DNA of 64,000 nucleotides from an uncultured bacterium (lineage in GTDB: Bacteria; Krumholzibacteriota; Krumholzibacteriia; WVZY01; JAKEHA01): assembly GCA_964560355.1 (NCBI GenBank), contig CAZLLI010000001.1:834-64833 (forward strand), written 5' to 3'. The position numbers and the translations under genes are program-made. The notes beneath the pieces are model-generated. The model was not told the origin of the DNA and searched no databases. It was given only the letters and a program-made list of their open reading frames with translations. Each line of letters opens with the position of its first letter. Position 1 is the first letter of the stretch. Below, piece by piece: positions 13,708-61,368 of this stretch.

Positions 13708-13711
13708 ATCT

Positions 13712-14668: not shown

Positions 14669-14698
14669 CCTCCTGGAAGGAAACCGGCCCGGCCGGAT

Positions 14699-17600: not shown

Positions 17601-17767
17601 TCGGTGAGGCTCATGGCACCCATGGTGGTGCCGACGACCATGACGTTTGCGTAAGGGAGGGGCTTACCGTCTTTTTCGGACACGACGGTTCCGGTGATGG
17701 AACCGGTTTGCGCCATCGCCAACGACGACGCCAATCCCAACAGCGCGACGACGATCGCACCGATCAT
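14699..17767 (-). CDS. TonB-dependent receptor with N-terminal carboxypeptidase-regulatory-like domain
   Basis: 1022 aa from the ATG at 17767; an alternative start is 17794. Signal peptide MIGAIVVALLGLASSLAMAQ. A CarbopepD_reg-like segment (GSITGTVVSEKDGKPLPYANVMVV…), a plug (…VVTAEKAMVE…IQIDGVPVSDP…), a long 22-strand barrel and the terminal …LGLGFEF. Confidence 0.85.
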   Translation of the reverse strand: MIGAIVVALLGLASSLAMAQTGSITGTVVSEKDGKPLPYANVMVVGTTMGAMSLTDGKFEIKGVPIGTYTVKAMMMGFEAVEKAGVVVNVGAAATTSFRLKEKVVAQIQEIVVTAEKAMVEVTETKVTGNVTEQQLGEMPVDDIIEAVGLKAGIVKTGDDMHVRGGRSNEVQIQIDGVPVSDPLGGGSVDVGMLGTSGSEIVSGGMDAEYGDAQSAVINIATKEGGATFGGEVRYFTDDFGRSDKTYTNFDRLSLGFGGPTWWKNLRYYMSGEATWSDTENTTIEPREEHKITDWLKFRQRQTSAYNLQGKLTYKMARMKLDGEAIYSESRGDDYINNWNISGYVSKVWYFQGLDVAGPPVNGREQFQFGRLRAINHGPWAEITDPAKQAAQLNVRPVDVIDLVRNPDGTQYVVTYTDFRAADFRIGNNVVTVVWDEAQQAPDGSVGYKPWALFEGFQRGASDFKPYLTAPQGADSSFVPFNSATTTPQTLAENLQLKLGFSHNITPKLLYTLKVSRLDLKTSSTVLDDLGNPKAPAEFSTAGLPVTLPDGTYLNAGVSNAVWYTDDDFPYFVTAYDYPFYSDQESIQYLFKGDVVSDQFKGHRIKTGIQLLYNDLNDDERVNPAQTRIDENGMIQQGLNVNIYENFNAEGAVYVQDKWDYEGMVVNGGLRYEWFTVGNNSAIDIASSEIDQSVDEFKWNLSPRLGVAFPITDRDKFFFHYGRFTQWPSRVYLFRTQDPVGSTGTLGNPNLEPELTVSYQAGISHQFTDDIAGNFVVFNKDIYGLISSTRVTDDSTGVQAFRFINRTYASSRGVELSLEKRLTRRLGFEVYYTYSFADGVASDADFGRSAEGLTHLPTEEYPLDWDQRNTFNVTLRLQDRNKWGATMIYQYGSGLPWTPVDRFARLNDPTWENSRRLEPTHKLSIQGRKLFNVYGRELTLFFEGRNLLDEDVLLPGGDAPGAFPGLVAATMDNGSYLTETGEYGGAYLQDQNADGRDDFNPVFDPTIWETHRLWRLGLGFEF

Positions 17768-17851
17768 CGTTCCGCGTCCGTCCCGTGGAAGCATTCGCGA
17801 AACCCCTTTCGCCTTCCGACACAAAGCCCGGACCTCCGGGGATGTGTTCAC

Positions 17852-29567: not shown

Positions 29568-30167
29568 TTATCGGTACAGGGCCTTGACGGCGCCCCACGT
29601 CGAGGGCTGCACCGGCAAGGGCGTTCCCGCGGTCTGCCCGCGCGCCACCACTTCGCCGTTGCCCCCGAAGACGAGGTACGGCGACCCCGAAGCGGCCATC
29701 ACGCGCGACGCCGTCGCGCGTTCCTGCGGATAGTTGAAGTAGAGACCGTCGAGTACCGCCCCGTCCGCGAGGGGCGGGTTCGATCCCAACACATAGTAAA
29801 CGATGACTTGCTCGTAGCCGGGAAACTCGGTGGCGAAGGGATAAAGCGACGTGTCGGGAAACGGCCAATCGGTCGGACGTCTTCCCCAGTCATTCACATC
29901 CCATTCGTCGGGGCCGACGCGCGTCGGCTCCCACACGTCGACCAGGTCGGGGTAACGCACGACCGTGAGGGTCGCGCCGTTGTTCCCGACCGCGATCATG
30001 TAGACGCCGGCCCCGGTCGCGTTGGTGACGGTGAACTCCCAATAGCCTCCCGCTTCCCAGCCGGGATCCACGTTCCACAACTCGGTGATGATGAGGTCAG
30101 CGCGCGCGGACGCGGGTAGGATGCCGGCGGCGAGAACGATACAAAGCACGATCGCATTGGTTCGCAT
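29568..30167 (-). CDS. hypothetical secreted protein ending in [11 protein letters not shown]
   Basis: The ATG at 30167 gives [23 protein letters not shown] (signal peptide). 199 aa, with no recognisable catalytic motifs. The C-terminal 11 aa resemble those of the 56803..57534 protein. Confidence 0.55.
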
Positions 30168-40400: not shown

Positions 40401-41052
40401 GGTTCACGCGCAGCGAGAGCCACGACGGCGACCACGTCCACAAGAAGAAGCCGGACACGAGGAGCGCCGCCACCGGCAGCACGAACACGAGCACCGCGCT
40501 GCGCGTGCGCTCGCCCACCATCATCGACATGCCGGTGAAGAAGATGAGGAACGGAAGCCCGATCGTCACCACCGGGACGATGTAGTTCATCGGGTTGAAG
40601 GGGCCGCGCATCTCTTGCGCGTTGGCGTTGGGGATGGCGTGGTTGAAGAACGCGGTGGCCGCGATTTGCACGCCCATCAAGGCGACGAAGCTCCCGATCA
40701 CCGCCCAGAAGCGGCCCCACACGTACTCCGCGGGGGTGAGCGGCGTCGAGTGCAGGAGCACGTCGACTTTGACTTCGCGGTCGCGCAGGAGCGTCAAGCC
40801 CGCCGCGACCGCGATGAAGAACGCATAGTAGAGCAGCACCAGGTACGTCATGGTTTGCGTCTGCGCAAACTCGGACGTGATCCAGGCCTTCTTGCCGCCC
40901 ACCGACGTCTCGCCCGACGAAATCTGCATGTGCCCGCTCGCGAGCCCGAAGGCGGTGAGGATGATCACCACCGCCAGCATGAAGAACAGCGGGCGCCGGA
41001 ACGAGTGGAAGAACTCGACGCTGAAGGAGGCGTAGGACCGCTTGAAGTTCAT
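37453..41052 (-). CDS. fusion protein: duplicated ABC-2-type transmembrane permease + C-terminal M1-family zinc metallopeptidase domain
   Basis: The ATG at 41052 overlaps the TGA of the upstream ATPase (ATGA). The N-terminal ~760 aa contain two sets of ABC-2-like TM helices. The C-terminal ~450 aa carry HEAAHQWWG…(x19)…E (HEXXH-X18-E gluzincin). The canonical GAMEN aminopeptidase motif is replaced by GYAQG. Confidence 0.8.
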   Translation of the reverse strand: MNFKRSYASFSVEFFHSFRRPLFFMLAVVIILTAFGLASGHMQISSGETSVGGKKAWITSEFAQTQTMTYLVLLYYAFFIAVAAGLTLLRDREVKVDVLLHSTPLTPAEYVWGRFWAVIGSFVALMGVQIAATAFFNHAIPNANAQEMRGPFNPMNYIVPVVTIGLPFLIFFTGMSMMVGERTRSAVLVFVLPVAALLVSGFFLWTWSPSWLSLRVNQILQVLEPSGYRWLNETHLKVDRGVEFYNTQRVPYDGLFWLNRLWLVLLGLGAVWLTVRSVEQSVRGAVAPKRAWRRKRKAAEAGEWAEAQAGALRALDMKSGAPSFVATVKHVAGAELRELRRQAGLYIFVPLILIQVFGNVMLAVGAFDTPLLLTPGTTAAAVVSQSATLVCLLLLFYTVEALERERTTGFANVLYATPMRTAAFLTGKALANGAIAGVVMIATLLACAVALLVQGTVPFSLTPYLLLWGVALVPTFLGWTAFVMAVYAAVGNRYAAYALSLALLIFTGYRALVDKMSWAGNWMLWGAVRWSDLGFFETDRAALFWNRLMVLGCAVFFTVVAVKLFGRRGGDAVRTMHALAPRRVARTAVRHAPYAAVPIGSAVVLMYLVSQGIGGGAVKKANKNYWGKNLKTWIDAPLPDIARVDVAVSLDPARHGIVSEGTLTLVNPLDSALAKIPLTGGLHWKHLSWTMDGADYTPDDSQHLYVFTPARPLAKGDSVVIGWKFDGRFPDGITRKGENTSEFILPSGIVLTGFTPSFMPVIGYREEVGMDRENQMDPRVYPRDYWKGITRAGYGATSWFPARISVTGPEAYTLNSVGVCTSNTVADGRRTQVWETDHPVKILNIVGGRWKVKEGKENTAVYYYAGHPYNVDEMSKALDDSRRWFSQWFLPYPWRELKLSEFPGYAGYAQGFGTNITFSENIGFLTKNDAKTDATYLVTAHEAAHQWWGNILTPANGPSGDFLSEGAAHFSVLLLFEEVKGPRGRMEFAKGIEERYNNRRRADDERPMYDVDGKRDSDNTIIYDRGGWVFWMLYDFMGAERAQAAYRNFFQTWSASRDHPALQDFVAALRPYAQDAAAYDAFTKQWFEDKVVPQYRVTSAEKTTNGDGFDVAVTVENIGTGVMPVEVAATKGERWNKPDSTGADYTANPDYQDARGVVTLGAGESKTLTIHCAFDPEKVVVDPDVRVLQLKRKHAVTDF

Positions 41053-41966
41053 CGCGCGGCACCCGCGGCGATCCCGTTGGCGTCGACGCCCCGCAGCTCG
41101 CCGAGGCGCATGAGCACGAGGTACGCGTCCTCGAGCGTGACCGGCACGCGCGCGAAGCCGGCCGGCGGATTGCCCTTGGGTTCGTAGATGCGCGCGCGGT
41201 TGCGCCCTTCGAAGAGGAGCGCTTGCGTCACCGTGCGCTCGCCGCGCAGCTTGGGCAGTTCGGCGACGTCGACAACGCCTTCGTAGATGTGCCCGTCGAT
41301 GGCGGCGCGCGCTTCGCTCGGGGTGGTGAGCGCGAGCAGGCGCCCTTCGCGAATCACCGCGAAGCGCGGGCACAGCACCGCGACGTCTTCGACGATGTGG
41401 GTCGAGAGCAGCACGATGCGGTCGGCCGCGAGCTCCGACAACAATTGGTAGAAGCGCAGGCGTTCCTCCGGGTCGAGGCCCGCGGTGGGCTCGTCGACGA
41501 TGATCAGGCGCGGGTCGCCCGCGATCGCTTGCGCGATCCCGAGGCGCTGGCGCATGCCGCCCGAGTAGCCCTTGACCGCGCGCTTGGCGGCGAACGTGAG
41601 GTTGACGCGATCGAGCAGCGCCGCCACCAGCTGCTTGCGCCCGTGCGGTCCGTCGACGCCTTTGAGCGTCAAGAGGTGCGTCAGCATCGCTTCGCCCGAA
41701 AGGTGCGGGTAGAACCCGAACTCCTGCGGGAGGTAGCCGAGCCGCGGCCACAAGCGTTCGGGGTGCGCGAGAATGTCGACGCCGTCGAGCGTGACGGTGC
41801 CCGAGGTCGGCTCGAGGAGGCCCGCGAGAATCTTCATGAAGGTCGACTTGCCGGCGCCGTTTGGGCCCAGGAGGCCGAACATACCGGGCGCGACATCGAG
41901 GTCGACGCCGTTCAAGGCGGTGACGGGACCGGGATAAATCTTGGTGAGCGCGCGAGCGGAGAGCAC
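41049..41966 (-). CDS. ABC transporter ATP-binding protein (ABC-2 type partner)
   Basis: The GTG at 41966 has GAGGAGG 7 nt upstream. GPNGAGKSTF Walker A, YSGGMRQRLGIAQA signature, LIIVDEPTAGLD Walker B. 305 aa. Confidence 0.9.
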   Translation of the reverse strand: MLSARALTKIYPGPVTALNGVDLDVAPGMFGLLGPNGAGKSTFMKILAGLLEPTSGTVTLDGVDILAHPERLWPRLGYLPQEFGFYPHLSGEAMLTHLLTLKGVDGPHGRKQLVAALLDRVNLTFAAKRAVKGYSGGMRQRLGIAQAIAGDPRLIIVDEPTAGLDPEERLRFYQLLSELAADRIVLLSTHIVEDVAVLCPRFAVIREGRLLALTTPSEARAAIDGHIYEGVVDVAELPKLRGERTVTQALLFEGRNRARIYEPKGNPPAGFARVPVTLEDAYLVLMRLGELRGVDANGIAAGAAR

Positions 41967-49320: not shown

Positions 49321-52221
49321 CTACTTGAGCAACACCATCTTGCGCGTCATCCGCTGACCGTCGACGTCGAGCACGCAGAAGTATACGCCGCTCGACACCG
49401 ATCCGCCGTTGCGATCTTTTCCATCCCACACCGCGGCGTGCGACCCGGCCGGGAAGGTCTGGTCCACCAGCGTACGCACGACGCGCCCCGACGTGTCGAG
49501 CACGAACAGGCGCACGCGCGACGCCGCCGGGACGTCGAACGGAATCGTCGTTTGCGGATTGAACGGGTTGGGGTGGTTCTGTCCCAGCGCGAGCGTGAGC
49601 GCAGCCGTGGTCACGGTCGCGGTCGGCGAGCGGTACTCGCTCCCCTCGCGCGTGCGCACCACCAGATCGTAGTGGTACGTGGTGCTGGGCTCTACGCCGC
49701 GGTCGACGAACGAGCGCGTGTCGTCGGCGGGGCCTTGCGCCACCACGACCGGCGTCGCGGCGCCGGCGTCGCGGCGGTACAGCGTGTACGTCGCCATGGG
49801 TTCGTCGCTCGAGAAGTTCCAGCTCACTTCGACGGCGGAGCCCGCGCGCACGGCTTCGAAGCGCGTGATCAAGACCGGGGTCGGGCCGCCGTCGCGGTTG
49901 ACGGGAATCACGACGTCGTTGGCGCCGGCGAAATCGTCGACGAAATACGAAAGGCGCGCGTATCCCGGCGTGCCCTGCGGCAGCACGAAGCGAAGCTCGA
50001 GCACCGCGACGGCGAAGTTGGCTGGCACGCCCGAGAGCGTGTAGGCCCCGATACGACGCGACCACGGAATCGGAATCGGAACCGGGATCGGCGCCGGGTA
50101 AACCGCGAGTGCCTCCCAGCCGAGGGTCGCACCGATGCGCGACGCCCGAATGAACGACACGGTGGGATCGGTGCTCACGGTGAACGCGAACGATTGCAGC
50201 GACGGAATTCCCGACGCAAACACTTGGGTGATGAGCGTGTCGCCTTCCGCCCAGGTCGGGTACGCGAACACGGTCGGCGTGGTCGGATTCGCCGGCGCCG
50301 CGGCGGCAGCCCCGCCGCAGAACGTGCACGACCCATCGACCGCTTGCTTGTGGATGCAGCGCGCGTCGCGCGGCGTCACAATGCTATTACAGTCGACGTC
50401 GGCGCGCCGGTCGGACCCGGTGCCCCCGCACGCCGCGCCCACGGCAAGCTGGAGCGCGCACTGCGCGTCGTCGACGGTGAGCGATCCGTCGCCGTTGACG
50501 TCGCCGTCGCCGGTCCCGCCCGGTACCACGGTGAACGACCACAACGGGCCGATCGTCAGGTTGGCCCCGTCGAACACGTCGATGCGCCAGTAGTACCGCA
50601 TCCCCACCGTGAGCGTGCCCGGGGCGTAGGAGCGCGACGGCCAATCGGCGGCGACGGCGGGGGGCGACGTCGTCGTCCCGAAGTAGACGACATGCGTCAG
50701 CGGGTCGCCGTTGGGGTCCGTCGACGACCAGGTCAAGACGGAGAGCGGGAACGCGATCCCGCCGTTGGGCGGGGACGGGTTGAAGGCCGGGTTGGGCGGA
50801 GAATTGTTGGCGCGCGTGCGGAAGGTCCACACCGGTCCGTCGCTCTGTGCGCCGAGCGGATCGCGCGCCATGACGCGCCAGAAGTACGACGTGTTGGGAA
50901 GCAGGGTGCCGGGATCGTACGAACGCGTCGTCAACCCGGGGCCGGCCAGGGGCGGGTTCGAATCCGTGCCGAAATACACGTCGAAGGTGAGCGGGTCGGC
51001 GTCGGGGTCGAAGCACGACCACGTCAGCCCGGGATCGAGCGAGACGTTGTCGGCCCCGTGGACGGGATTGGGGTTGTAGGGAATCACGGGCTGGCCGTTG
51101 GCCTCGCGCGTGGTGAACGTCCACGTCGGCCCCGATGTCTCCGCCAGCCCGTCACTGGCGACGACGCGCCAATAGTAGGGCGTGTCGGGCGCGAGGACGC
51201 CGGGCGTGTACTCGGGCTGCAAGACGTCCTCCGCGACCAAGGGCGGATTCGGCGACGTGCCGAGGTAGACGTCAAAGGTCAGCACGTCGTTGTCGATGTC
51301 GCCCGCCCCCCAGAAGAGGGTCGCGTTCAGCTGGACGCCGCTCTGACCGCTGATCGGGTGCGGGCTCTCGGGCGGAAACGGCGGCGTGTTGCTCGCGCGC
51401 GTGGTAAACGCCCACACCGGCCCCGACGATTCGAGTCCGAGCGCGTCGCGCGCAACCACGCGCCAGTAGTGCTGGGTGAACGGCGCGAGCGCGGCCGGGA
51501 CGTAGTTCGGCTCCGAAAGGTGCGACGCGACCAAGGGCGGCGACGGCGTGGTGCCGATATAGATGTCGTAGTCCACCAGGTTGCCGTCGACATCGTCCGC
51601 GTACCAATTCATGAACGGGCGCGTGCTCGACCCCGCAGTATTGTCTTGCGGGAACGGATTCGACGGCGCGTAGGGCGCGCTGTTGCCGAGGCACGCGCAC
51701 GACGCGTCCGCGTTCATGTGACTGGTGACGCCGGCGATGGGAAGGTCCTGAAACGCGCAGTCGCTCGCGGACAGCGTCTCCAGCGCGGGGTCGGGGATGA
51801 TCGGATAGGGGCAGCACGACGCGGTCGCGCCGCCGGTTTGGTAGTAGACGATCTGCAGCACGTTGACGGGATCGTCGACGCACTGCGAGAGCGCGACCGA
51901 CACGCCGGTCTGCGAATTCCCGAGTACGAGCGCGGCGCTGGCCGCTTGGTCGTAGAGATAGGTGGCGCCGTAGCACGCGGGTAGTGGTGCGGCGAATTGG
52001 ACCGCGGTGACGCCGCGCGGGTCGGGACGAACGACGACGTACGCGGTGACGTAGCCGGGCGCGTCGCCGCTGAACGAGCACGAGTTCCCGGACGCGTCGC
52101 TATAGAGGCCGATGGAAGCGTTCTGCGCGCGGGCGGACGTCGCCGCCATGCAAATCGAAAGGAGAAGTGCCGCCCGAACGAGTCGCGCGGCGAAACCGCG
52201 TGGCCAGAAGAACTCCGGCAT
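49321..52221 (-). CDS. giant secreted T9SS-cargo protein (paralog 1): Cys-rich N-domain + 4 FN3-like repeats + dockerin-like segment + type-A CTD
   Basis: Signal peptide MPEFFWPRGFAARLVRAALLLSICMAATSARAQ. Conserved Cys-rich domain at aa 33-177. Four repeats of the form DPDGDxLTFDVYFGT…PPLV…YYWRVVARD…GPxWxFTT. GDGDVNGDGSLTVDDAQCA…ADVDCNSIVTPRDARC is a paired dockerin-like Ca loop. The C-terminus …GQNHPNPFNPQTTIPFDVP…SGVYFCVLDVDGQRMTRKMVLLK is the Por secretion-system sorting domain. Confidence 0.85.
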   Translation of the reverse strand: MPEFFWPRGFAARLVRAALLLSICMAATSARAQNASIGLYSDASGNSCSFSGDAPGYVTAYVVVRPDPRGVTAVQFAAPLPACYGATYLYDQAASAALVLGNSQTGVSVALSQCVDDPVNVLQIVYYQTGGATASCCPYPIIPDPALETLSASDCAFQDLPIAGVTSHMNADASCACLGNSAPYAPSNPFPQDNTAGSSTRPFMNWYADDVDGNLVDYDIYIGTTPSPPLVASHLSEPNYVPAALAPFTQHYWRVVARDALGLESSGPVWAFTTRASNTPPFPPESPHPISGQSGVQLNATLFWGAGDIDNDVLTFDVYLGTSPNPPLVAEDVLQPEYTPGVLAPDTPYYWRVVASDGLAETSGPTWTFTTREANGQPVIPYNPNPVHGADNVSLDPGLTWSCFDPDADPLTFDVYFGTDSNPPLAGPGLTTRSYDPGTLLPNTSYFWRVMARDPLGAQSDGPVWTFRTRANNSPPNPAFNPSPPNGGIAFPLSVLTWSSTDPNGDPLTHVVYFGTTTSPPAVAADWPSRSYAPGTLTVGMRYYWRIDVFDGANLTIGPLWSFTVVPGGTGDGDVNGDGSLTVDDAQCALQLAVGAACGGTGSDRRADVDCNSIVTPRDARCIHKQAVDGSCTFCGGAAAAAPANPTTPTVFAYPTWAEGDTLITQVFASGIPSLQSFAFTVSTDPTVSFIRASRIGATLGWEALAVYPAPIPVPIPIPWSRRIGAYTLSGVPANFAVAVLELRFVLPQGTPGYARLSYFVDDFAGANDVVIPVNRDGGPTPVLITRFEAVRAGSAVEVSWNFSSDEPMATYTLYRRDAGAATPVVVAQGPADDTRSFVDRGVEPSTTYHYDLVVRTREGSEYRSPTATVTTAALTLALGQNHPNPFNPQTTIPFDVPAASRVRLFVLDTSGRVVRTLVDQTFPAGSHAAVWDGKDRNGGSVSSGVYFCVLDVDGQRMTRKMVLLK

Positions 52222-52296: not shown

Positions 52297-55221
52297 TCAC
52301 TTCAGCAGCACCATCTTGCGCGTGAGTCGCTCGCCGCCTACGTCGAGCACGTAGAAGTAAACGCCACTCGACACCGAGCGGCCACCACCGTCCCTTCCAT
52401 CCCACACAGCGTTGTGTGCACCCGCTGGCACGTTCTCATCCACCAACTTGCGCACCATGCGCCCGGCCGCGTCCATCACGAGCAATCTGACGCGCGCCGG
52501 TGCAGGTATGTCGAACGGGATCGTCGTCTGGGGATTGAACGGGTTCGGGTGGTTCTGACCGAGCGCCAGTGCCACCTGCGCCGTCGTTACGGTGACCGAT
52601 TGCGAGCGGAACTCGCCGCCGGCCTGAGTGCGAACGACCAGCTCGTAGTGATAGGTCGTGCCCGGCAGCACCGCGCGATCGACGTAAGAGCGCGTGCCGA
52701 CGTCGACGCCCTCCACGATTGCGACCGGCTTCGCCGCCCCCACGTCGTGACGGTAGACCGTGTAGCCCGCGATGGGTTCGTCGCTCGCGTAATCCCAGCG
52801 CACTTCAACATCAGAGCCGCTGCGAACGGCTTCGAAGCGCGAGATCAAAACAGGAGTCGGCGGGGCGCTCGGAACGATGATAAATGTGACCGGTTCGGCG
52901 CCCGCGAGATCGTCGATGCACGAGCTTATGGTCGCCGTGCCCGCGCGGTCGTCCGTCAGGTCGAAGTAAAGCAGCAGCATCAGCACGAAGTTCTCCGCGG
53001 GCGCTCCCGAGAGCGAGTAGCCGCCGACGCGTCCGAAGAATCCCGGGAAGGGGATAGCCAAACTTTGTAACCGGGCGAAACCGATTGTCGCACCGGCATT
53101 GACAGCGCCTTGAAACACCGCGTTACCACTGAGGTCGAGTTGGAAACCCAGCGCCTCGAGCGAGGCAACACCCGAGACGAAGACCGGCGCAACCACGAAT
53201 TGGCCCTCCGAATACGTCGTCCCCACGTAGAGTGTCGGCACCAGCACCGCCGCGTGGTCGATCTCGACGGCGCTCGCGGCCGACGCGCCAACACAAAACG
53301 CGCAGGAACCGTCGAGCACGTGCTTGTGGATACAGCGGGCGTCGCGCGGGGTCACGGAAGCATTGCAGTCGACATCGGCGCGTTGGGCTGAATACCCTGG
53401 GCAGCCGGAGCCGCCATAGACGTACCCGCCTAACGCGCAGGACGCATCATCTAACGTGATCGAATTGTCTCCATTCACATCGCCTTTGCCGGGTGCTGGT
53501 AACGTGGTGAACGACCACGTTGGGCCGTCGGTCGTCAGCAAACCGTCCGACGCGACCACTTTCCACAAGTACGTGGTGAGCGGTGCCAGCCCGCCCGGCA
53601 TCACGCCGTGCGACGTCGTCAGGCCCGTCGCGATGAGGGTCAGCGGTGCGACGGTCCCGAAATACAAGTCGTAACTGACGGGATCGGCATCGGGGTCGCT
53701 ACCCACCCAATGCACCGTGCCCAACCCCGCGGGGACCGGGATGGTCCCACCGTCGGGGGGAGTGGGAAACGCAGGAACCGACGGTGCCGCGTTGAACAAC
53801 CGCGTTTGGAACGACCAGATCGGGCCGGCCGTCGTCAATCCGGCGGGATCGCGCGCCACCACATACCAATAATACGTGGTGCCCAAGGCGAGGAGTCCCG
53901 TCGGGAATACCCCCGCCGACAAGTTGTCACTGACCAACGGCGGAGGAGTCGTCGTGCCGAAGTACACGTCATAACGGAGCGCGTCTCCATCGGGATCGCT
54001 GCCACCCCAGGTCAGCGTCAGGCCAGCAAATGGGTGATCCACGCTTCCATCGGGCGGAGTGGGGCTGGTCGGTGGGTTGGGCGGTCGGTTCGCAAAGCTT
54101 CTGGTCGTAAATCTCCATGTGGGTCCCGAGACTACATTGAGTCCGTCCGTAACCACGATACGCCAGAAATACTCCGTCGCTGTCGCGAGCGGCCCCGGCG
54201 AGTACGTCATGGCAGTTTGGTTGTCCGACACGAGGGGCGGCGGATCCGACGTGCCGAAATACACGTCGAAGCCGACGGCGTCGCCATCGGGGTCCTCGCC
54301 GACCCACGTGAGCGTTGGACTCAGTATTACGTTATTCTCGAAATCAGGCGGTTGTGGACTGTCTACTATGTAGGGCGGCGAATTCCCTCCCGAAGCCCTC
54401 GTGGCGAATGTCCACGTTGGCCCCGATGTCTCGAGTCCCTGCTCGTCGCGGGCGACTACGCGCCAGTAGTGCAGCGTGTTGGCAGCCAACTGTGGCGAAA
54501 AGTAATTCGCAGACGGGAGACCGGACGCGACCAACGGGGGCGACGGCGTCGTCCCCAAGTAGATATCGTACTCCGACAGATTGCCGTCGATATCGGACGC
54601 GTACCAACTCATGATCGGAGTCCGGCTGATCCCCGACGTCAGGTCTTGCGGAATGGGATTGGACGCCATCGAGGGGGCGCTATTTCCGGCACACTGGCAC
54701 GACGCGTCCGCGTTCATGTGGCTGGTGACGCCCGCGATGGGAAGGTCTTGGAACGCGCAGTCGCTCGCGGACAGCGTCCCCAGCGCGGGGTCGGGGATGA
54801 TCGGATAGGGGCAGCACGACGCGGTCGCGCCGCCGGTTTGGTAGTAGACGATCTGCAGCACGTTGACGGGATCGTCGACGCACTGCGAGAGCGCGACCGA
54901 CACGCCGGTCTGCGAATTCCCGAGTACGAGCGCGGCGCTGGCCGCTTGGTCGTAGAGATAGGTGGCGCCGTAGCACGCGGGTAGTGGTGCGGCGAATTGG
55001 ACCGCGGTGACGCCGCGCGGGTCGGGACGAACGACGACGTACGCGGTGACGTAGCCGGGCGCGTCGCCGCTGAACGAGCACGAGTTCCCGGACGCGTCGC
55101 TATAGAGGCCGATGGAAGCGTTCTGCGCGCGGGCGGACGTCGCCGCCATGCAAATCGAAAGGAGAAGTGCCGCCCGAACGAGTCGCGCGGCGAAACCGCG
55201 TGGCCAGAAGAACTCCGGCAT
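52297..55221 (-). CDS. giant secreted T9SS-cargo protein (paralog 2)
   Basis: The first ~175 aa are identical to paralog 1 (DNA duplication). It diverges afterwards, with about 5 FN3-like repeats, a dockerin-like GDVNGDNSITLDDASCA…ADVDCNASVTPRDARC and the CTD …NHPNPFNPQTTIPFDIP…SGVYFYVLDVGGERLTRKMVLLK. Confidence 0.85.
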   Translation of the reverse strand: MPEFFWPRGFAARLVRAALLLSICMAATSARAQNASIGLYSDASGNSCSFSGDAPGYVTAYVVVRPDPRGVTAVQFAAPLPACYGATYLYDQAASAALVLGNSQTGVSVALSQCVDDPVNVLQIVYYQTGGATASCCPYPIIPDPALGTLSASDCAFQDLPIAGVTSHMNADASCQCAGNSAPSMASNPIPQDLTSGISRTPIMSWYASDIDGNLSEYDIYLGTTPSPPLVASGLPSANYFSPQLAANTLHYWRVVARDEQGLETSGPTWTFATRASGGNSPPYIVDSPQPPDFENNVILSPTLTWVGEDPDGDAVGFDVYFGTSDPPPLVSDNQTAMTYSPGPLATATEYFWRIVVTDGLNVVSGPTWRFTTRSFANRPPNPPTSPTPPDGSVDHPFAGLTLTWGGSDPDGDALRYDVYFGTTTPPPLVSDNLSAGVFPTGLLALGTTYYWYVVARDPAGLTTAGPIWSFQTRLFNAAPSVPAFPTPPDGGTIPVPAGLGTVHWVGSDPDADPVSYDLYFGTVAPLTLIATGLTTSHGVMPGGLAPLTTYLWKVVASDGLLTTDGPTWSFTTLPAPGKGDVNGDNSITLDDASCALGGYVYGGSGCPGYSAQRADVDCNASVTPRDARCIHKHVLDGSCAFCVGASAASAVEIDHAAVLVPTLYVGTTYSEGQFVVAPVFVSGVASLEALGFQLDLSGNAVFQGAVNAGATIGFARLQSLAIPFPGFFGRVGGYSLSGAPAENFVLMLLLYFDLTDDRAGTATISSCIDDLAGAEPVTFIIVPSAPPTPVLISRFEAVRSGSDVEVRWDYASDEPIAGYTVYRHDVGAAKPVAIVEGVDVGTRSYVDRAVLPGTTYHYELVVRTQAGGEFRSQSVTVTTAQVALALGQNHPNPFNPQTTIPFDIPAPARVRLLVMDAAGRMVRKLVDENVPAGAHNAVWDGRDGGGRSVSSGVYFYVLDVGGERLTRKMVLLK

Positions 55222-55293
55222 GGGTATCCGACGCCGGGTTGGAACTGTGGCGTCGCAAGGAAGTGTACACCGCGCGCTAAAGCGCCGTCAATC
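54700..55293. repeat. about 0.6-kb direct repeat, copy B
   Basis: Partner of 51700..52293. It covers the 5' end of paralog 2 (the antisense ORFs 54680..55081 and 51272..52081 in the track share an identical 108-aa prefix). Confidence 0.85.
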
Positions 55294-56772
55294 GCCGTCT
55301 TCGGTGGTGTCGCTCATCTCGGTGACGAAGGGCGGCGGCAGCATGGATTCCACGCAGGAGGCGTCGAGACCCACCGTAGTGCCGGCGTCGAGAAAGGCGA
55401 GAATGAGCGCGTCGTAGCACTCCATGTTGGCGACGCCGTCGGGATAGTGACCCAAGTAGTCGATCACCACCACGCGGCTGTCGGAGAGCCGCGACGAGAC
55501 CTCCTGCGCCCACACCATCGGCGTCACGTAGTCCATGCCGCCCGCGATCAGCAGGGTCGGGATCGACGCCGCCACCGGCGCGAGCGCGTCGTCGGAGAGC
55601 GCGACCGTCGGCCACAACTTGCACGCGCCCGCTTGCTGGTCGACCCGATAGCGCCCCAGGAACGTTCCCGCCGTTTCGCTCTCGATTTCGTCTTCGGAAA
55701 TTCGCTGCGTCGCTTCCGGGCACGTTACGCACAGGTACATTCCCTCCGCGAACGGAGATTCCCCGCTGTCGGGACTCACGATCGAGAAGAACGGCGCGAA
55801 GTCGCCTTGCGCGGCGTGGTGGACGATGTACGGCACCCCGCGCTGGTACTCCGTAGTAATGAGCAGCGTGCGCAGCGCTTCGAAGAACGGCCCGCGCTGG
55901 AGCGTCACCAGCCGCGTGTCCGAGGTGTCGGAGTAGACCGCGCCCTCGGAGCCGTCCGCGAAGGCGTCCAGCAACGCTTCCCAGTCGCTGCGGATCGACG
56001 GGAAGGCGTCGCCGCACAACGGATCGCGTTCGCAGTCGTCGATTAGTTTTTGCATGACCTCTTCGGACGCGCGCGCGTGGTGGAGCGGGAGCTTCTCGTC
56101 GATCGGCACCGTGCCCGTCAAGACCGCGCAGCGCACGTTCTGCGGGTACTCGCGCATGTACGTCTGCGCGACGATGGTGCCGTACGACAACCCGATGAGG
56201 TCGATCTTCTCGTAGCCCATCGCGAGTCGCACCGCTTCCAAGTCGCGCACCGCGGCCATCGTGGTGTACTGCGTGAGGTCGGCGATCTTCTCCAGCTCGT
56301 CGCGGCAGCGCTTGACCGCGTCCGGCGGATACATCTCGTCGAGCTTGGACGCGCGCTCGAGCTCGGGGCAGCGCAGCGGATTCGACTCACCCGTACCGCG
56401 CTGGTCGACCAGGACCACGTCGCGCGTCGCGCGATAGCCCGTGCTGTCTTGCGCGTACCACGACGCCGCGCTCGACGCCGCCATACCCGGCCCACCCGCG
56501 AGGTCGAAGAGCGGCGCGTCCTTGACCCCGTTCGTGAGCGCGGGAATCACGATCACGCGCAGCGCGATCGTGCGCCCGCCGGGCTGGTCGCGATTCTCGG
56601 GCACCACGAGCTTCCCGACCAGCACCGAGGCGCTGTCGATCAATGTCGGTTCGAGCGCGAGCGTGCGCGGACGCGGCACCGTGTGCATCTCCGGAACCGG
56701 CGCTTGCGCCATTGCCAAAGCCGCGAGCAGAAACAGTAACGCGACGAAGAAGGCCGTCCGTGTCGAAATCAT
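55288..56772 (-). CDS. secreted alpha/beta-hydrolase, S33-type (tripeptidyl/prolyl aminopeptidase-like)
   Basis: Signal peptide MISTRTAFFVALLFLLAALAMAQA. GLSYG nucleophile elbow. Length and Cys pattern resemble secreted tripeptidyl aminopeptidases. Confidence 0.75.
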   Translation of the reverse strand: MISTRTAFFVALLFLLAALAMAQAPVPEMHTVPRPRTLALEPTLIDSASVLVGKLVVPENRDQPGGRTIALRVIVIPALTNGVKDAPLFDLAGGPGMAASSAASWYAQDSTGYRATRDVVLVDQRGTGESNPLRCPELERASKLDEMYPPDAVKRCRDELEKIADLTQYTTMAAVRDLEAVRLAMGYEKIDLIGLSYGTIVAQTYMREYPQNVRCAVLTGTVPIDEKLPLHHARASEEVMQKLIDDCERDPLCGDAFPSIRSDWEALLDAFADGSEGAVYSDTSDTRLVTLQRGPFFEALRTLLITTEYQRGVPYIVHHAAQGDFAPFFSIVSPDSGESPFAEGMYLCVTCPEATQRISEDEIESETAGTFLGRYRVDQQAGACKLWPTVALSDDALAPVAASIPTLLIAGGMDYVTPMVWAQEVSSRLSDSRVVVIDYLGHYPDGVANMECYDALILAFLDAGTTVGLDASCVESMLPPPFVTEMSDTTEDGD

Positions 56773-56802: not shown

Positions 56803-57534
56803 TCAGCGGTACAGCGCTTTGATTCTTCCCCACGTCGAGGCTTCGACCGCGAGCGGCATGACGTAGAAGCGCCACACCAGGCTGCTGCTGTTGAAGGTCC
56901 CGTCCGACGCCACCACGCGCCAATAGTAGACGGTGTTCGCTTGCAGCGGGCCGACGTCGAAGAAGCGATCGCTGATCGCAGCCGCCACCTGCGGCGGCGG
57001 GTTGGTGGTGCCGAAGAGGACGCGGTAGGTAACGGGCTGAAGATCGGTGTCGCCCGACCGCCACCGCAGCGTGACGGTGGGAGGCGCGTACCCCAAGTTG
57101 GCCGGCGTTGGGTCGAAGGGCGGAATCGGCGGCGTGTTCTCTTTGGTGACGAACGACCACGTCGGGCTCGCGGCCTCGAGCCCGGCGGGATCGCGCGCGA
57201 CGACGCGCCAGTGATACGACGTGATGAACTCGAGCGTGGGCGGAATGTAGTAAGGCGTGGCGACGCCGGTCGCGACCAGCGGCGGATCGTCGCTCGCGCC
57301 GAAATAGATGTCGTAGGTGACGTTGTCGCCGTCGGGGTCGCCGCCGACCCAAGACACGGACGAGCCGATCATCTGCTCGGCCGCGCCGTCGAACGGTCGC
57401 GGGACCGACGGGACGTTGGGCGCCGTGTTGTCGGCGAAAGAGACTTGCGGCAGGAGCGCCGCGATCAGCGCGAGCGCGACGAACGCGACGCACCGATCAG
57501 CACGTCGTTCGTGTACGTATGCTGACATGCTCAT
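56803..57534 (-). CDS. small secreted protein with two FN3-like repeats, ending in STWGRIKALYR
   Basis: Signal peptide (…VAFVALALIAALLPQVSFA). Two repeats (DPDGDNVTYDIYFGASDDPPLVA…YHWRVVARD…; …VTYRVLFGTTNPPPQVA…YYWRVVASD…). It has no T9SS CTD; the C-terminal motif is shared with the 29568..30167 protein. Confidence 0.65.
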   Translation of the reverse strand: MSMSAYVHERRADRCVAFVALALIAALLPQVSFADNTAPNVPSVPRPFDGAAEQMIGSSVSWVGGDPDGDNVTYDIYFGASDDPPLVATGVATPYYIPPTLEFITSYHWRVVARDPAGLEAASPTWSFVTKENTPPIPPFDPTPANLGYAPPTVTLRWRSGDTDLQPVTYRVLFGTTNPPPQVAAAISDRFFDVGPLQANTVYYWRVVASDGTFNSSSLVWRFYVMPLAVEASTWGRIKALYR

Positions 57535-57591: not shown

Positions 57592-60500
57592 TCACTTGAG
57601 CAGCACGAGCTTCCTCGTCAACCGCTCGCCTCCGACATCGAGGACGTAGAAGTATACACCACTCGAGACGGCCGCACCGCGATCGTCCTTGCCCTGCCAC
57701 TCGACGCGATGCGAGCCCCCTCCCTGCTCCTCGTCGACCAGCGTCTTCACGAGGCGACCTGAAAGGTCGATTATGCGCAGGCGGACGCCCTCTCGTTCCG
57801 TCGAGGCTGGCAATTCGTACGTAATCGTGGTCCTCGGATTGAACGGGTTGGGGTAGTTCTGGTGCAGCGCAAGCTCCTGGGTCGCGGGCCGGACCTCGAC
57901 AGTCGGGCCCAAGTCTATGAATAGTTGTGGCGCGTCCATGAGATCGTCGACGAACCCGCTGATCAGGATATCGCCATTGATCCCGCGGCTCATGTCGAAA
58001 TAGAGCTCGATGAATTCCCCGGTGCCCGTGACCGCCGCACTCGCAAGGGTGTAGGCGCCGATCACGGACGTACCCAAACTCGGGGTGCGGACCTCGATGA
58101 TTTCGAAGTCGCTGGACGCACCCCGACGCGCGGCGCCGATCATCGGCATCTTGGCGTTCGACATTGAATAGAACCCGAACGCTTCTAGTGAAGGCACATT
58201 TGCCGCTGAAAGTCGCACGACGAGCGTGTCGGCACGCGTCGACGTTGAAGCGAGTGACACCACTGGCCACATGGCGGTCCGCTTTCCCCGCGCCGACGCA
58301 CCGGCGACGGCGCGATCGCAAAGTTCACACGAACCGTCGATCGCTGCCTTGTGGATACAACGCGCGTCGCGTGGCGTCACCGCGCCGCCACAGTCGACGT
58401 CGCCCACGGTGTACGCGGCAGCTCCGCCGCAATCCGGGTTCCATAGCGCGACGTCCATCGCGCATTGCGCGTCGGCGAGCGTCAACACTCCGTCCTGCAC
58501 CAGGTCACCGGGCTGCCGTACCACAAAATTCCAAAGTGACCCCGGCGTCGTCGCCACGCCGTCCGACACGTCCACGCGCCAGTAATAGGCGCGTCCTATT
58601 TCCAACCGACCAGGTGCGTACTGTGGTTCGGGCGTCGACGAAACTACCAGGGGCGGCGAAGATGTCCGGCCGAAGTACACCGCGTAGGTGAGAGACTGGC
58701 CATCGACATCGCTCGCGGTCCAGGTGAGCACAGGATACGACGGCCCCGACGCGCCGCCGTGCCACGGCCACGGACTCGACGCGGCGGTCGGCGGCGTGTT
58801 GGGCTTGGTCGTGAAGGACCAGGTCGGTCCCGACGCCGCGGCGCCGACGGTGTCGCGAGCAACGACGTGCCAGTAGTATCGCGTTGCCAACGCAAGTGCG
58901 CCCGGGCTGTACGTGCGATTGACGATCGATGTCGCGACAAGGGGCGGGACGTCGCCGGTACCGAAGTACACGTCGTAGGTCACGAGATCCCCATCGGGGT
59001 CACCGCTGCTCCATGAGAGATTGGCCGTGGGTGAAACCCCACTCGCACCGTCGGACGGCGATGGATACGACGGCACTGAGGGCGCTCGATTCGACGCGGC
59101 GGTCGTGAATGACCATTGGACTCCCGACGTGGAGTCGCCGTGCGCGTCCGTTGCGACGACGCGCCACTGATACCCGGTCGCGTACGCAAGCGTGGCGGGT
59201 TTGAACGAACGCGACACCAGGTTCGACGCGACGAGCGGCGGATTGGGCCCAGGTCCGAGGTACACGCGATACGTGATCGCGTCCAAGTCCGGATCACTGC
59301 AGCTCCACGTGAGCGTCGGATTGCGTGTGATATCGCTCGCACCGTTGACGGGCGACGGGCCGGCGGGTTCGCCGGGTGGGCTATTGCCCGGAATCGTTGT
59401 GAAGGTCCACAGCGGACCTAGCGTTGTGAGTCCGCCGGTGTCCCGCGCCAGCACGCGCCAGTAGTAGCGCATCCCGCGAACGAGGATCGGCGGCGCGTAG
59501 GACGGCGAGATGCGATTCGTCGCCACGAGCGGCGGATTCGGCGAGGTCCCCAGATAAACGTCGTAATAGAGAAACTGTCCCTCCGGATCACTCGCGCTCC
59601 ACGATAGGACGGGCCCCGCCGAGACGTTGGTCGCGCCGTCGGGGGGCGATGGATTCGCCGGGGGTGTTGGCGGACTGTTACCGGCCATCGTGTTGAATCG
59701 CCACGTTGGCCCCGACGTCGCAGCCCCCTTCGAATCGCGCGCCACGATGCGCCAGTAATAGCGCGTCGAGAATCCGAGCGCTCCGGGGGAGTACGTACTG
59801 GCGGCCACGTTGCTCGCCACCAATGGCGGAGTCACCGCCGTTCCGAAGTACACATCGAACTTGACCACGTCGGCGTCCGGGTCGGTGCCGGTCCATGCGA
59901 GCGTCTGGTCGACCGGTCGGTTTGTAGCCGCGTTCGCTGGGACTGGATTCGACGGCGCGTTGGGCGGAAGGTTGGACGGACGGGTCGTAAACGTCCACGT
60001 CGGTCCCGATGTCTCTGCTCCCGCCGGATCGCGCGCGACGATTCGCCAATAGTGCGGAGTCGAGAAGCTGAGCGTGTCGGGGTCGTAGGTGGCGGCCGGC
60101 CACGCGGTCACCACGAGCGGCGGCGGCGACACCGTCCCGAAGTACACATCGAAAGTAAGCGGATCGTTGTCGCGATCGCTTGCGGACCAGGACACTCTTT
60201 GGTCGATAGGACGGTTGGTAGCGTTGTTCGACGGAACCGGAGCGAGGGGAACGCTGGGCGGGTAATTGGCGGGGCGCGTGACGAAACTCCACACCGGTCC
60301 CGAGGTCTCGTGTGCCGCGATATCGCGGGCGACCACGCGCCAGTAGTATGTGACCGAGAATGTGAGCAGCGCGGGTGTGAAAGTAGAGATGGTCTGGTTT
60401 GCGGCGACCAACGGGGGCGACGATGCCGTGCCGAAGTACACGTCGTACATCAACGGGTCGCCGTCGATGTCGGCTCCTTGCCACGCCAAGGTCACGGCGA

Positions 60501-61368
60501 GCAGCACATCGGTCGCGGTGTTCGCGGGCGAAGGCTCGTACGGCGAGCTCGGCGGCGAATTAGCGGCGCGAGTGGTAAACGTCCAGGTAGGGCCGGATTC
60601 CTCGAGTCCGAAAGCGTCGCGGACGACGACACGCCAGTAGTGCTGCGTCAATTCGGCAAGCGGAGTCGACGGCGTGTAGTTCGCAGTTGCGAGGCCGGCC
60701 GCCGCAAGGGGAGGTGTCGTCGTTGTACCGAGGTAGACGTCGTAGCCCGCGATATTGTTGTCGAAATCCTGCGATGTCCACGTCATCAGCGGGATGACGC
60801 TGTGACTGGAAGTCTGATTCGCTGGCGACGGCGCCGAGGGCGGTATCGGCGGGCTGTTGCCGACGCACTCGCAGGTCGCATCCGCGTTGAAGTGCGCCAC
60901 GACACTCGTGGTCGGTATTTCGCTGTAGTCGCAACCGCTCGCCGCGATGCTCCCCATGGATGGGGCCGGTAGAATCGGGTACGGACAGCAAGACTGCGTC
61001 GACCCCGAACGCATGTAATTGATCCGCAGCACGCTCACGGGTTGCGTATAGCAGCTTTGCAACACAATCGAGACGCCGGTCTGCGAGTTCCCGAACTTCA
61101 TCATCCCCGGTGTGACCGTCTCTCCGACGTACACCGCCCCTAGACAGGCCGGCACTGGAGCTGAAAACTGCACGGTGTTGACGCCCGCGAAATCGGGGCG
61201 GAACACGACGTAGGCCGTGATGGGACCGGGGTTGTTTCCTGAGAAGCTGCAGGTGTTACCGGTGACATCGGTGTAAAGACCGATGTTGGCGCCCGCGGCG
61301 CGGGCAGGACGCGCCACGAGCATCGCGCATAGAAACGCGGCGGCCAGACAAGCGCACAGTACCCTCAT
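57592..61368 (-). CDS. giant secreted T9SS-cargo protein (paralog 3, about 9 FN3-like repeats)
   Basis: 1258 aa. Signal peptide MRVLCACLAAAFLCAMLVARPARA. The Cys-rich N-domain is about 50% identical to paralogs 1 and 2 (…GLYTDVTGNTCSFSG…CCPYPILP…DATCEC). It has about nine FN3-like repeats and a dockerin-like segment (…GDVDCGGAVTPRDARCIHK…). The CTD is …NYPNPFNPRTTITYELP…SGVYFYVLDVGGERLTRKLVLLK. Confidence 0.85.
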   Translation of the reverse strand: MRVLCACLAAAFLCAMLVARPARAAGANIGLYTDVTGNTCSFSGNNPGPITAYVVFRPDFAGVNTVQFSAPVPACLGAVYVGETVTPGMMKFGNSQTGVSIVLQSCYTQPVSVLRINYMRSGSTQSCCPYPILPAPSMGSIAASGCDYSEIPTTSVVAHFNADATCECVGNSPPIPPSAPSPANQTSSHSVIPLMTWTSQDFDNNIAGYDVYLGTTTTPPLAAAGLATANYTPSTPLAELTQHYWRVVVRDAFGLEESGPTWTFTTRAANSPPSSPYEPSPANTATDVLLAVTLAWQGADIDGDPLMYDVYFGTASSPPLVAANQTISTFTPALLTFSVTYYWRVVARDIAAHETSGPVWSFVTRPANYPPSVPLAPVPSNNATNRPIDQRVSWSASDRDNDPLTFDVYFGTVSPPPLVVTAWPAATYDPDTLSFSTPHYWRIVARDPAGAETSGPTWTFTTRPSNLPPNAPSNPVPANAATNRPVDQTLAWTGTDPDADVVKFDVYFGTAVTPPLVASNVAASTYSPGALGFSTRYYWRIVARDSKGAATSGPTWRFNTMAGNSPPTPPANPSPPDGATNVSAGPVLSWSASDPEGQFLYYDVYLGTSPNPPLVATNRISPSYAPPILVRGMRYYWRVLARDTGGLTTLGPLWTFTTIPGNSPPGEPAGPSPVNGASDITRNPTLTWSCSDPDLDAITYRVYLGPGPNPPLVASNLVSRSFKPATLAYATGYQWRVVATDAHGDSTSGVQWSFTTAASNRAPSVPSYPSPSDGASGVSPTANLSWSSGDPDGDLVTYDVYFGTGDVPPLVATSIVNRTYSPGALALATRYYWHVVARDTVGAAASGPTWSFTTKPNTPPTAASSPWPWHGGASGPSYPVLTWTASDVDGQSLTYAVYFGRTSSPPLVVSSTPEPQYAPGRLEIGRAYYWRVDVSDGVATTPGSLWNFVVRQPGDLVQDGVLTLADAQCAMDVALWNPDCGGAAAYTVGDVDCGGAVTPRDARCIHKAAIDGSCELCDRAVAGASARGKRTAMWPVVSLASTSTRADTLVVRLSAANVPSLEAFGFYSMSNAKMPMIGAARRGASSDFEIIEVRTPSLGTSVIGAYTLASAAVTGTGEFIELYFDMSRGINGDILISGFVDDLMDAPQLFIDLGPTVEVRPATQELALHQNYPNPFNPRTTITYELPASTEREGVRLRIIDLSGRLVKTLVDEEQGGGSHRVEWQGKDDRGAAVSSGVYFYVLDVGGERLTRKLVLLK

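Follow-up and report, generated by a model that had tools for sequence, protein, structure and literature searches.

A 64-kb stretch of DNA from an uncultured Krumholzibacteriota bacterium (64,000 nucleotides of contig CAZLLI010000001.1, here called the window) carries two genes for small secreted proteins that share a short C-terminal peptide, the TWG tail. The first gene, at 56803..57534 on the minus strand, is an open reading frame (ORF) for a mini-protein of 243 amino acids (241 in the database copy, P0036) with two FN3-like domains followed by the tail. In its translation, the predicted Sec signal peptide comprises residues 1-34 (57433..57534, minus strand), with cleavage placed by the AxA rule between ...LLPQVSFA and DN. 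The core of the tail, STWGRIKALYR, is encoded at 56806..56838 (minus strand), immediately ahead of the TGA stop codon at 56803..56805. Together with its spacer, MPLAVEA, it spans 56806..56859 (minus strand) and fits the consensus of 124 carriers described below. The C-terminus reads ...MPLAVEASTWGRIKALYR, or ...WRFYVMPLAVEASTWGRIKALYR in a longer reading of the same end.

The second gene, at 29568..30167 on the minus strand, encodes a secreted protein of 199 amino acids that reads from an MRTNAIVL start, a start codon backed by the alignment of its orthologues. The predicted Sec signal peptide covers residues 1-23 of the translation (30099..30167, minus strand) and ends in ...ILPASARA before DL, while the core tail (29571..29603, minus strand) follows a TPLPVQP spacer and directly precedes the TAA stop codon at 29568..29570. 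The body of this protein has no Pfam or NCBIfam domain, and shows remote homology to PEP-CTERM/VPLPA-CTERM proteins. By inspection, the signal peptides of both proteins are typical, of the N-terminal Sec type, and neither protein matches FlgD_ig, Por_Secre_tail or TIGR04183. An earlier sequence-only reading had described both as signal-peptide proteins without the C-terminal domain (CTD) of type IX secretion systems (T9SS), and in this it was right.

The two endings conform to STWG[AR][VI]KALYR, as that reading had stated, although its description of them as an identical 11-mer was slightly overstated: they agree at nine of 11 positions and differ by R/A and I/V. Strict and relaxed motif scans in all six frames gave no further copy of the tail in the window. 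Beyond their stop codons the two genes are followed by unrelated DNA, and several residues shared by the tails are written in different synonymous codons (aaa/aag, gcg/gcc and cgc/cga). The similarity is therefore kept at the protein level and is not repeated DNA, so that a repeated DNA element or an ending encoded by a terminator is excluded.

Occurrence and passengers of the tail

In 20 orthologues of the 199-residue protein (48-72% identity), T-W-G-x-[VI]-K-[AS]-[LM]-Y-R is invariant, and the approximately 40 residues ahead of it vary freely. In the seven homologues of the FN3 mini-protein that are about 196-243 residues long (P0036-P0042, identity 60-70%), the ending is STWGxIKALY[RH], to which a D is sometimes added. 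A back-translated pattern, TWGx[IVM]K[AS][LIM]Y[RS], in which no stop codon was required, was run against one genome per GTDB species. The scan gave at least 130 matches in at least 118 loci, all from metagenome-assembled genomes (MAGs). A stop codon directly follows the tail in 104 of the 130 matches listed (80%), where about 5% would be expected by chance; a further 23 of these have 1-6 extra residues past the tail and one has 12. Internal motifs number only two among the 130 listed, both at locus L072. The tail is thus widespread and kept in relatives, and is not peculiar to the two window proteins.

Counted from record titles, the loci among those listed are labelled Eisenbacteria/Eiseniibacteriota (28), Krumholzibacteri(i)a (13), Latescibacteria/-ota (8), Gemmatimonadota (5) and Fibrobacteraceae (3), with 59 titled 'bacterium' without further label. 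One Patescibacteria bin and one Woesearchaeota bin are both possibly mis-binned. Judged by the source names of the nearest homologues, the window probably comes from a Krumholzibacteria-type MAG. The tail is restricted to a group of related candidate phyla of the Fibrobacterota-Chlorobiota-Bacteroidota (FCB) type. Several single MAGs have at least 6-7 copies, and the window has two.

BLAST sorts the 124 strict carriers, with a median length of 245 amino acids, into at least 59 clusters of unrelated proteins, which bears out the view that a common ending sits on unrelated bodies. A signal-peptide-like h-region is present in 122 of 136 complete carriers, compared with 168 of 417 other ORFs of the same loci. 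A Pfam domain is lacking in about 85 of 105 carriers, and the domains found on the others (LTD, Beta_helix, CHRD, CAP, CBM96, DUF4114 and plastocyanin-like) are modules of secreted or surface proteins. Carriers are frequently tandem paralogues, as at L015, L093 and L103. The stop codon is TAG in 55-59% of the carriers, in 16 of 30 proteins with a T9SS CTD and in 38-41% of the other ORFs of the same loci. The T9SS-CTD proteins share this bias, which therefore is no property of the tail alone and appears to belong to secreted proteins generally; the idea that it signals control at the level of termination was dropped.

The tail is not a chance feature; it is under purifying selection, near-exclusively terminal and modular. 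The proposal that it has no function of its own, and is a chance resemblance, the relic of a truncated signal or a repeat at the DNA level, finds a foothold in a few plainly chance matches to the pattern in AT-rich viral contigs: a scan of IMG/VR with the same pattern gave five matches, of which two in AT-rich DNA (L126 and L128) are obvious chance. This proposal is effectively refuted by the invariance of the tail across orthologues, by its exactly C-terminal position in 80% of the matches listed from a stop-free pattern and by its presence on at least 59 passenger families, to which the synonymous codon differences and the unrelated DNA beyond the stop codons may be added.

Several outlying occurrences deserve separate mention. 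In the other three IMG/VR matches (L127, L129:5572-6423 and L130:3250-4098), which lie in GC-rich contigs classed as viral, the tail is exactly at the protein C-terminus, and the carrier gene of L129 is convergent with the gene of an 865-residue phage tail protein (PHROG 1101, E 4e-86). At L091 (CAZJUI010000022.1, 'Woesearchaeota archaeon' bin, GC 31%), an ORF with the customary Cys and Pro/Val spacer ends in ...LSCTTPVIPVTWGTIKAMYRTR*. If the contig is not mis-binned, AT-rich organisms have the tail as well. The two internal motifs of L072 (L072:489-1271 and L072:3009-3851, minus strand; JBBTRH010000024.1, 'Patescibacteria group' bin, GC 53%) belong to paralogous secreted proteins that read ...KPA[IV]RSTWGAIKALYR. 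Here the motif is placed about 30 residues past the signal peptide, ahead of the catalytic region, and one of the two proteins has a Peptidase_M23 domain. The alternatives are mis-binning of this contig and an episymbiont that borrows its host's tail as a targeting module. In the 'LWEIxxWxD' family, proteins from metagenome loci L136, L139 and L140 have two tandem tails, for example ...STWGSIKALYWEQDGRIVESTWGSIKALYL and ...ASSTWGSIKALYWEQDGRIVESTWGSIKALYL.

Anatomy of the tail and the endings it replaces

The core motif, [ST]-W-G-x-[IVLM]-K-x-x-[YF]-[RKH], usually follows a short Pro/Val/Thr/Glu spacer (P-V-P-V-E-x-S). The extended consensus of the 124 carriers is [C at -8..-10 in 57%]-(G)-P-[VT]-P-[VT]-E-x-[ST]-T-W-G-x-[IV]-K-[AS]-[LM]-Y-R, and the spacer has E at -3 in 43% and P at -2 in 19% of them. 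T, W, G, K and Y were invariable in the pattern used for the scan, so that the natural variation was read from homologues and neighbours. There, T may be replaced by S and, rarely, W-G by S or F variants; L is found at the I/V position, small or polar residues at the two positions past K, F in place of Y, and K, H or E in place of the final R. About eight residues follow the Trp, the invariant Lys among them. One basic residue (R, K or H) closes the tail, and where further residues follow they are mostly D, E, N or Q. None of the carriers has a transmembrane (TM)-like segment in its last 40 residues, the median best 15-residue hydropathy being 0.59.

Counted from the tail's Thr, the upstream Cys lies 8-10 residues back, which puts it about 18-20 residues from the end; 43% of carriers, both window proteins among them, lack it. 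In carriers that have it, the number of Cys residues in the mature protein is even in 51 of 68 and never just one. The proximal Cys therefore appears to be disulfide-paired, with a structural role rather than a free thiol, and would mark the end of a disulfide-stapled passenger, leaving a fixed spacer of about eight residues before the tail. A free Cys for lipidation is unlikely on the same counts.

In the AlphaFold2 (AF2) model of the FN3 mini-protein, two beta-sandwich domains have a predicted local distance difference test score (pLDDT) of 70-90, while the tail is below 50 and is not packed on its own passenger. The model of the 199-residue family, with a mean pLDDT of 54, is too low in confidence for any conclusion. 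A tail at a free end that does not dock on its own body, and whose composition combines W, I/V, L and Y with K and R in a G-x-x-x-[AS] spacing, could lie in the plane of a membrane leaflet and tether periplasmic proteins without a protein partner. The C-terminal amphipathic anchors of PBP5/6 and the membrane-targeting sequence of MinD are models for such interfacial anchoring. However, shuffled versions of the tail have a helical hydrophobic moment just as high (mean 0.42, against 0.41 for the tail itself; 51% of shuffles reach 0.41), and an amphipathic helix was rejected. Lipid-binding helices normally conserve a pattern and not a sequence, whereas the W, G, K and Y/F-R/K/H positions of the tail are held across phyla and families. 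With a length of only ten residues as well, an interfacial anchor is improbable.

The tail matches no catalogued family. Isolated tails, six of them in the case of NCBIfam, gave no match to Pfam (2025 copy) or NCBIfam 20.0 at E<=10, while positive controls were detected (PEP_CTERM at 32.4 bits with a cutoff of 16, VPLPA-CTERM at 25.6 bits with a cutoff of 25.35). No CTD model matches the tail, and since the controls work, a known CTD subclass, which the sequence-only reading had named as the alternative, is excluded. A profile search of the PDB with the tails returned nothing, and a tail-profile search of a 5.8-billion-protein collection, where the word index is too restrictive, returned only 12 short fragments. 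A full-text literature search for tail strings gave no relevant paper, and a keyword search on these phyla and sorting signals gave no description of the tail. These results support that reading's view that the ending is no named motif.

Three features define the small C-terminal sorting domains: their signature motif, a membrane-spanning helix and a cluster of Arg (10.1101/2023.06.07.544157). The TWG tail resembles the tripartite domains (PEP-CTERM, VPLPA-CTERM, LPXTG, GlyGly-CTERM and MYXO-CTERM) in its terminal position and in having several carriers per genome, but it has no membrane helix, no Arg/Lys cluster and no match to a curated hidden Markov model. Since the helix and the basic cluster are lacking and neither databases nor literature provide a match, the tail is best read, from its sequence, as an uncatalogued tag for C-terminal sorting, short and devoid of a membrane segment.

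Two kinds of ending take the place of the tail in homologous proteins. The first is the exosortase signal PEP-CTERM/VPLPA-CTERM (TIGR02595, TIGR03370). A profile search with the 199-residue family in 1.84 billion representative proteins found 35 relatives. The nearer ones end in TWGGVKALYR, TWGGIKALFE, SWGAIKALSR or NFGRIKSLYR, and the remoter ones end in a classical ...VVPVPAAVWLFGSGLLGLVGIARRR, which NCBIfam calls VPLPA-CTERM/PEP-CTERM. In the family alignment, both endings begin at the same junction and run position for position, with P, W and L columns in common ([LV]P[VT][EQ]x[ST]TWGx[IV]KAL[YF][RE] versus VP[VLE]PAAxWLFGSGLLGL...RRR), so that the tail aligns with the first 15 or so residues of PEP-CTERM/VPLPA-CTERM. 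The two types also share their position at the extreme C-terminus of signal-peptide proteins, their many paralogous carriers with unrelated passengers and a Pro-rich motif ahead, and they occur at the same MAG loci, where canonical PEP-CTERM ORFs stand beside TWG carriers (L067 and L068). The tail differs in having no transmembrane helix, one basic residue in place of the Arg cluster and no conserved Pro-Glu-Pro, and its own conserved W-G-x-I-K-x-L-Y-R has no counterpart in PEP-CTERM. It looks like the first half of PEP-CTERM minus the membrane helix and Arg cluster, a resemblance in sequence that is a lead rather than demonstrated homology.

This resemblance is the starting point of the main rival explanation, in which the tail would be a processed signal descended from PEP-CTERM that an exosortase or a CPBP/Rce1-type intramembrane protease cuts off, the passenger then being moved to a surface acceptor. 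The common junction and columns and the PEP-CTERM ORFs at L067 and L068 speak for it, and hhalign of independent sets of diverse TWG tails and PEP-CTERM tails chooses the same alignment. That similarity is not significant, however (E 0.42 over nine columns), TIGR02595 and TIGR03370 miss the tails at E<=10, the PEP motif is not conserved (E at -3 and P at -2 at the frequencies given above), and there is neither a TM helix nor an Arg cluster to keep the substrate in the membrane. The upstream Cys, moreover, looks disulfide-paired and not free for lipidation. Both of the domains that the tail replaces, T9SS CTD and PEP-CTERM, are cleaved signals (10.1101/2023.06.07.544157; PMC7468200), which again favours processing. 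On balance a processed signal of this descent seems unlikely, though it is a serious alternative, and the gene evidence that bears on it is given below.

The second ending is the T9SS type-A CTD. The closest longer homologues of the mini-protein (P0043-P0050, mostly about 410-420 residues, 51-58% identity over 72-95% of the query) share its body as far as WRFYVxx[VL][PA]V and continue with an extra domain of about 75 residues and a FlgD_ig/Por_Secre_tail T9SS type-A CTD. They end in ...RKLVLLK where the short form has xxSTWGxIKALYR. Close homologues of the mini-protein thus bear either a CTD or a tail, and both endings are found on secreted proteins, in the same genomes and the same gene clusters. 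With about 70-100 residues, the CTD folds into an Ig-like domain (TIGR04183/PF18962/PF13860-like), whereas the tail, of 10-18 residues, has no structure in the AF2 model and is recognised by no CTD model. In homologous proteins, then, what follows the junction is either the tail or, in its place, a T9SS type-A CTD or a PEP-CTERM/VPLPA-CTERM domain.

Both forms are found in the same type of gene cluster, with a GDSL lipase, giant FN3-CTD proteins and an Abhydrolase_1+Abhydrolase_4 hydrolase. In the window, genes for such giants and for the hydrolase lie around the mini-protein gene. A protein of 1258 residues with FN3-like repeats and a T9SS type-A CTD (57592..61368, minus strand; TIGR04183 at 31.3 bits with a cutoff of 23) has repeats 45% identical to the body of the mini-protein, and two giant FN3 proteins with a FlgD_ig CTD (49321..52221 and 52297..55221, minus strand) share their repeats with it. 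Over the three giant CTD-bearing neighbours, the identity of the repeats to the FN3 modules of the mini-protein is 40-45%. The Cys-rich N-terminal domain of the giants, about 165 residues long, is found in other MAGs as stand-alone TWG-tailed proteins. The sequence-only reading had given both tailed proteins giant CTD-bearing neighbours; this is correct for the mini-protein gene, but the 199-residue protein gene adjoins uvrA. The genes at 49321..52221 and 52297..55221 are 90% identical over their first 800 or so nucleotides, with identical N-termini of 35 residues and 60% identity over the whole proteins, a pattern in the sequences that suggests gene conversion of the 5' end or a recent partial duplication.

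Genes beside the carriers

The gene that adjoins the mini-protein gene (55288..56772) encodes a secreted Abhydrolase_1+Abhydrolase_4 protein ('TAP-like', of the prolyl/tripeptidyl aminopeptidase family). In relatives (L119, L122, L124 and L125) it keeps its position in the cluster whether the ending is TWG or CTD. As a member of an aminopeptidase-type family that is equally present in clusters of the CTD version, this alpha/beta-hydrolase was rejected as a partner of the tail. No sortase, exosortase or CPBP gene was found among the window ORFs scanned, and the sortase-like partner that the sequence-only reading had envisaged was not found in the neighbourhoods of about 8 kb around carriers, where a CPBP gene beside one family is the only lead. 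BLAST clustering and Pfam on 137 flanking genes revealed no shared enzyme; a Ser/Thr kinase and an extracytoplasmic function (ECF) sigma factor, the latter in four carrier loci, are tied to particular passenger families.

The CPBP gene (L090:1513-2583 and L094:1645-2817) encodes an intramembrane protease of the Rce1/myxosortase superfamily and lies directly downstream, on the same strand, of 'LWEIxxWxD' TWG genes. A metagenome scan with this protease gave ten orthologous loci (L132-L141, 47-74% identity), in eight of which 1-3 TWG genes of this family lie directly upstream, so that CPBP adjoins TWG genes in 10 of 12 orthologous loci overall. The adjacency adds to the case for a signal processed by such a protease. 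However, the link is confined to one passenger family, within a block that keeps its gene order throughout (CopA-like ATPase, LemA, HtpX-like protein and, on the opposite strand, a second TWG family), and since the whole block is kept, the adjacency may be lineage synteny. In 70 more distant CPBP loci there are no TWG neighbours.

The CPBP protein of L090 and L094 is also far below every curated myxosortase cutoff. The tail resembles the substrates of myxosortase/CPBP-type systems in the Cys that 57% of carriers have 8-10 residues before it and in the CPBP gene beside one family, but its Cys is not invariant and is apparently disulfide-paired, and it has no TM segment or Arg cluster. In the CAAX-type substrates of CPBP/Rce1 proteases, the Cys is needed at the fourth position from the C-terminus, whereas that of the tail is about 18-20 residues from the end or absent. 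As the only lead to a partner, the CPBP protease remains tied to a single carrier family.

A Ser/Thr kinase with tetratricopeptide (TPR) repeats is encoded in 11 of 119 carrier loci, including the window (32375..34525). In L006, L028, L064, L081 and L113, which are Eisenbacteria-type loci, the kinase gene is followed by one or two TWG genes on the same strand, and a TM segment is predicted for the kinase in L028, L081 and L113 only. In the window, two genes separate the kinase from the tailed gene. This arrangement, with a tail that is C-terminal and exposed, could fit a tag that a PDZ protease of the periplasm, or else a stress or kinase sensor, recognises, so that the tail would be a degron or a signalling ligand; the recognition of outer-membrane protein C-termini by DegS is a model. 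PDZ recognition requires a fixed free carboxylate, whereas the tail tolerates 1-6 extra residues. Furthermore, the tail replaces surface-sorting domains and is not added to stress sensors, the kinase link is found in about 11 of 119 loci and mainly for one passenger family, and the window kinase has no predicted TM segment. A tag of this kind is very improbable.

A proposed docking tail for envelope proteins

The sequence-only reading took the ending for a sorting, anchoring or protease-recognition signal. This general view is supported by a tail that is portable and terminal, occurs on at least 59 families and swaps with the T9SS CTD and PEP-CTERM, and judged from its sequences it is probably a sorting or anchoring tail of some kind. 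It would serve as a portable envelope-sorting or anchoring tail at the C-terminus of Sec-exported proteins in Krumholzibacteriota, Eisenbacteria, Latescibacterota and allied FCB-type bacteria. Sec export and removal of the signal peptide would leave the flexible tail exposed, a conserved component of the envelope would recognise it, and the recognised passenger would be kept at, or delivered to, the outer membrane or cell surface.

As for the manner of recognition, the tail may dock non-covalently, as a short linear peptide, on a receptor, and this is tentatively favoured over cleavage by a sortase-like enzyme. Docking is favoured because there is no membrane-spanning segment to present the tail to an intramembrane enzyme, because 1-6 extra residues are tolerated past it, and because tandem double tails and the internal copies of L072, one of them ahead of an M23 domain, occur. 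The low pLDDT of the tail, with no packing on its own body, points the same way. An interfacial anchor, a PDZ or sensor tag and the absence of any function are all less likely than either docking or a processed signal.

Several points weigh against docking. No receptor or enzyme has been found for the tail, and no family is common to the carrier loci, as examined through BLAST clusters, the ORFs of the listed loci and neighbourhoods of about 8 kb (Pfam, 137 neighbours). The only recurrent neighbours are T9SS-CTD proteins (FlgD_ig in nine and Por_Secre_tail in four of the 137). All carriers come from uncultured MAGs, and the internal copies of L072 come from a single, possibly mis-binned contig. 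The disorder of the tail in the AF2 model is weak evidence since the alignments have 15-20 sequences only, and ten residues are short for a specific docking module. Finally, because both of the signals that the tail replaces are cleaved, analogy with them would favour a tail that is processed.

A docking tail would have a functional analogy in other docking modules and terminal peptides, such as dockerin with cohesin and the PTS1 (peroxisomal targeting signal 1) and TPR-bound peptides, in which a modular terminal element puts diverse passengers on a common receptor. The tandem duplication and occasional internal placement of the tail fit binding modules as well. Dockerins, however, are folded domains of about 70 residues, and the PTS1 and TPR systems work in the cytosol, on peptides whose carboxylate must be free. 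It also differs from the beta-signal of outer-membrane proteins that is recognised by the beta-barrel assembly machinery (BAM), where a terminal aromatic residue belongs to a beta-barrel; the tail ends in R, K or H on FN3-like or soluble passengers.

It is possible, though somewhat doubtful, that the tail represents a third class of bacterial C-terminal surface-sorting signal, with a receptor or processing machinery of its own common to Eisenbacteria, Krumholzibacteriota, Latescibacterota and allied FCB bacteria. If so, a linear peptide of 10-18 residues without a membrane anchor would stand apart from the folded T9SS CTD and from the tripartite domains, and phages and a candidate episymbiont may exploit it on their own secreted proteins. 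LPXTG, PEP-CTERM, GlyGly-CTERM, MYXO-CTERM and the T9SS CTD each led to a sorting machine and a listing of surface proteins. The TWG tail marks dozens of otherwise unannotatable secreted proteins in uncultured candidate phyla that are widespread in the environment. With a simple motif model, the carriers could be annotated as one class and the partner machinery sought by phylogenetic profiling; it would also show how diderm bacteria target proteins that have neither a membrane-spanning signal nor a folded CTD. Homologous passengers on which the tail, a T9SS CTD and PEP-CTERM replace one another are natural experiments on the role of each ending.

Other genes of the window belong to the wider setting. 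An outer-membrane protein of the PorV/PorQ family is encoded at 13712..14668 on the minus strand (NF033709 at 212.8 bits with a cutoff of 90), and this protein and the type-A CTDs of the giants indicate that the organism has T9SS-type components. The presence of PorV/PorQ does not bear on whether the tail uses T9SS. The gene lies in a cluster at 12145..17851 (minus strand), between a GWxTD protein (12145..13761) and a TonB-dependent-receptor-like protein with CarboxypepD_reg (14699..17851), which may form a T9SS-associated outer-membrane module. A second GWxTD protein is encoded at 2915..4186. At 37453..41751 (minus strand), a single ORF of 1432 residues combines an ABC-2-type permease-like region (residues about 565-740) with a Peptidase_M1 domain (about 1121-1304).

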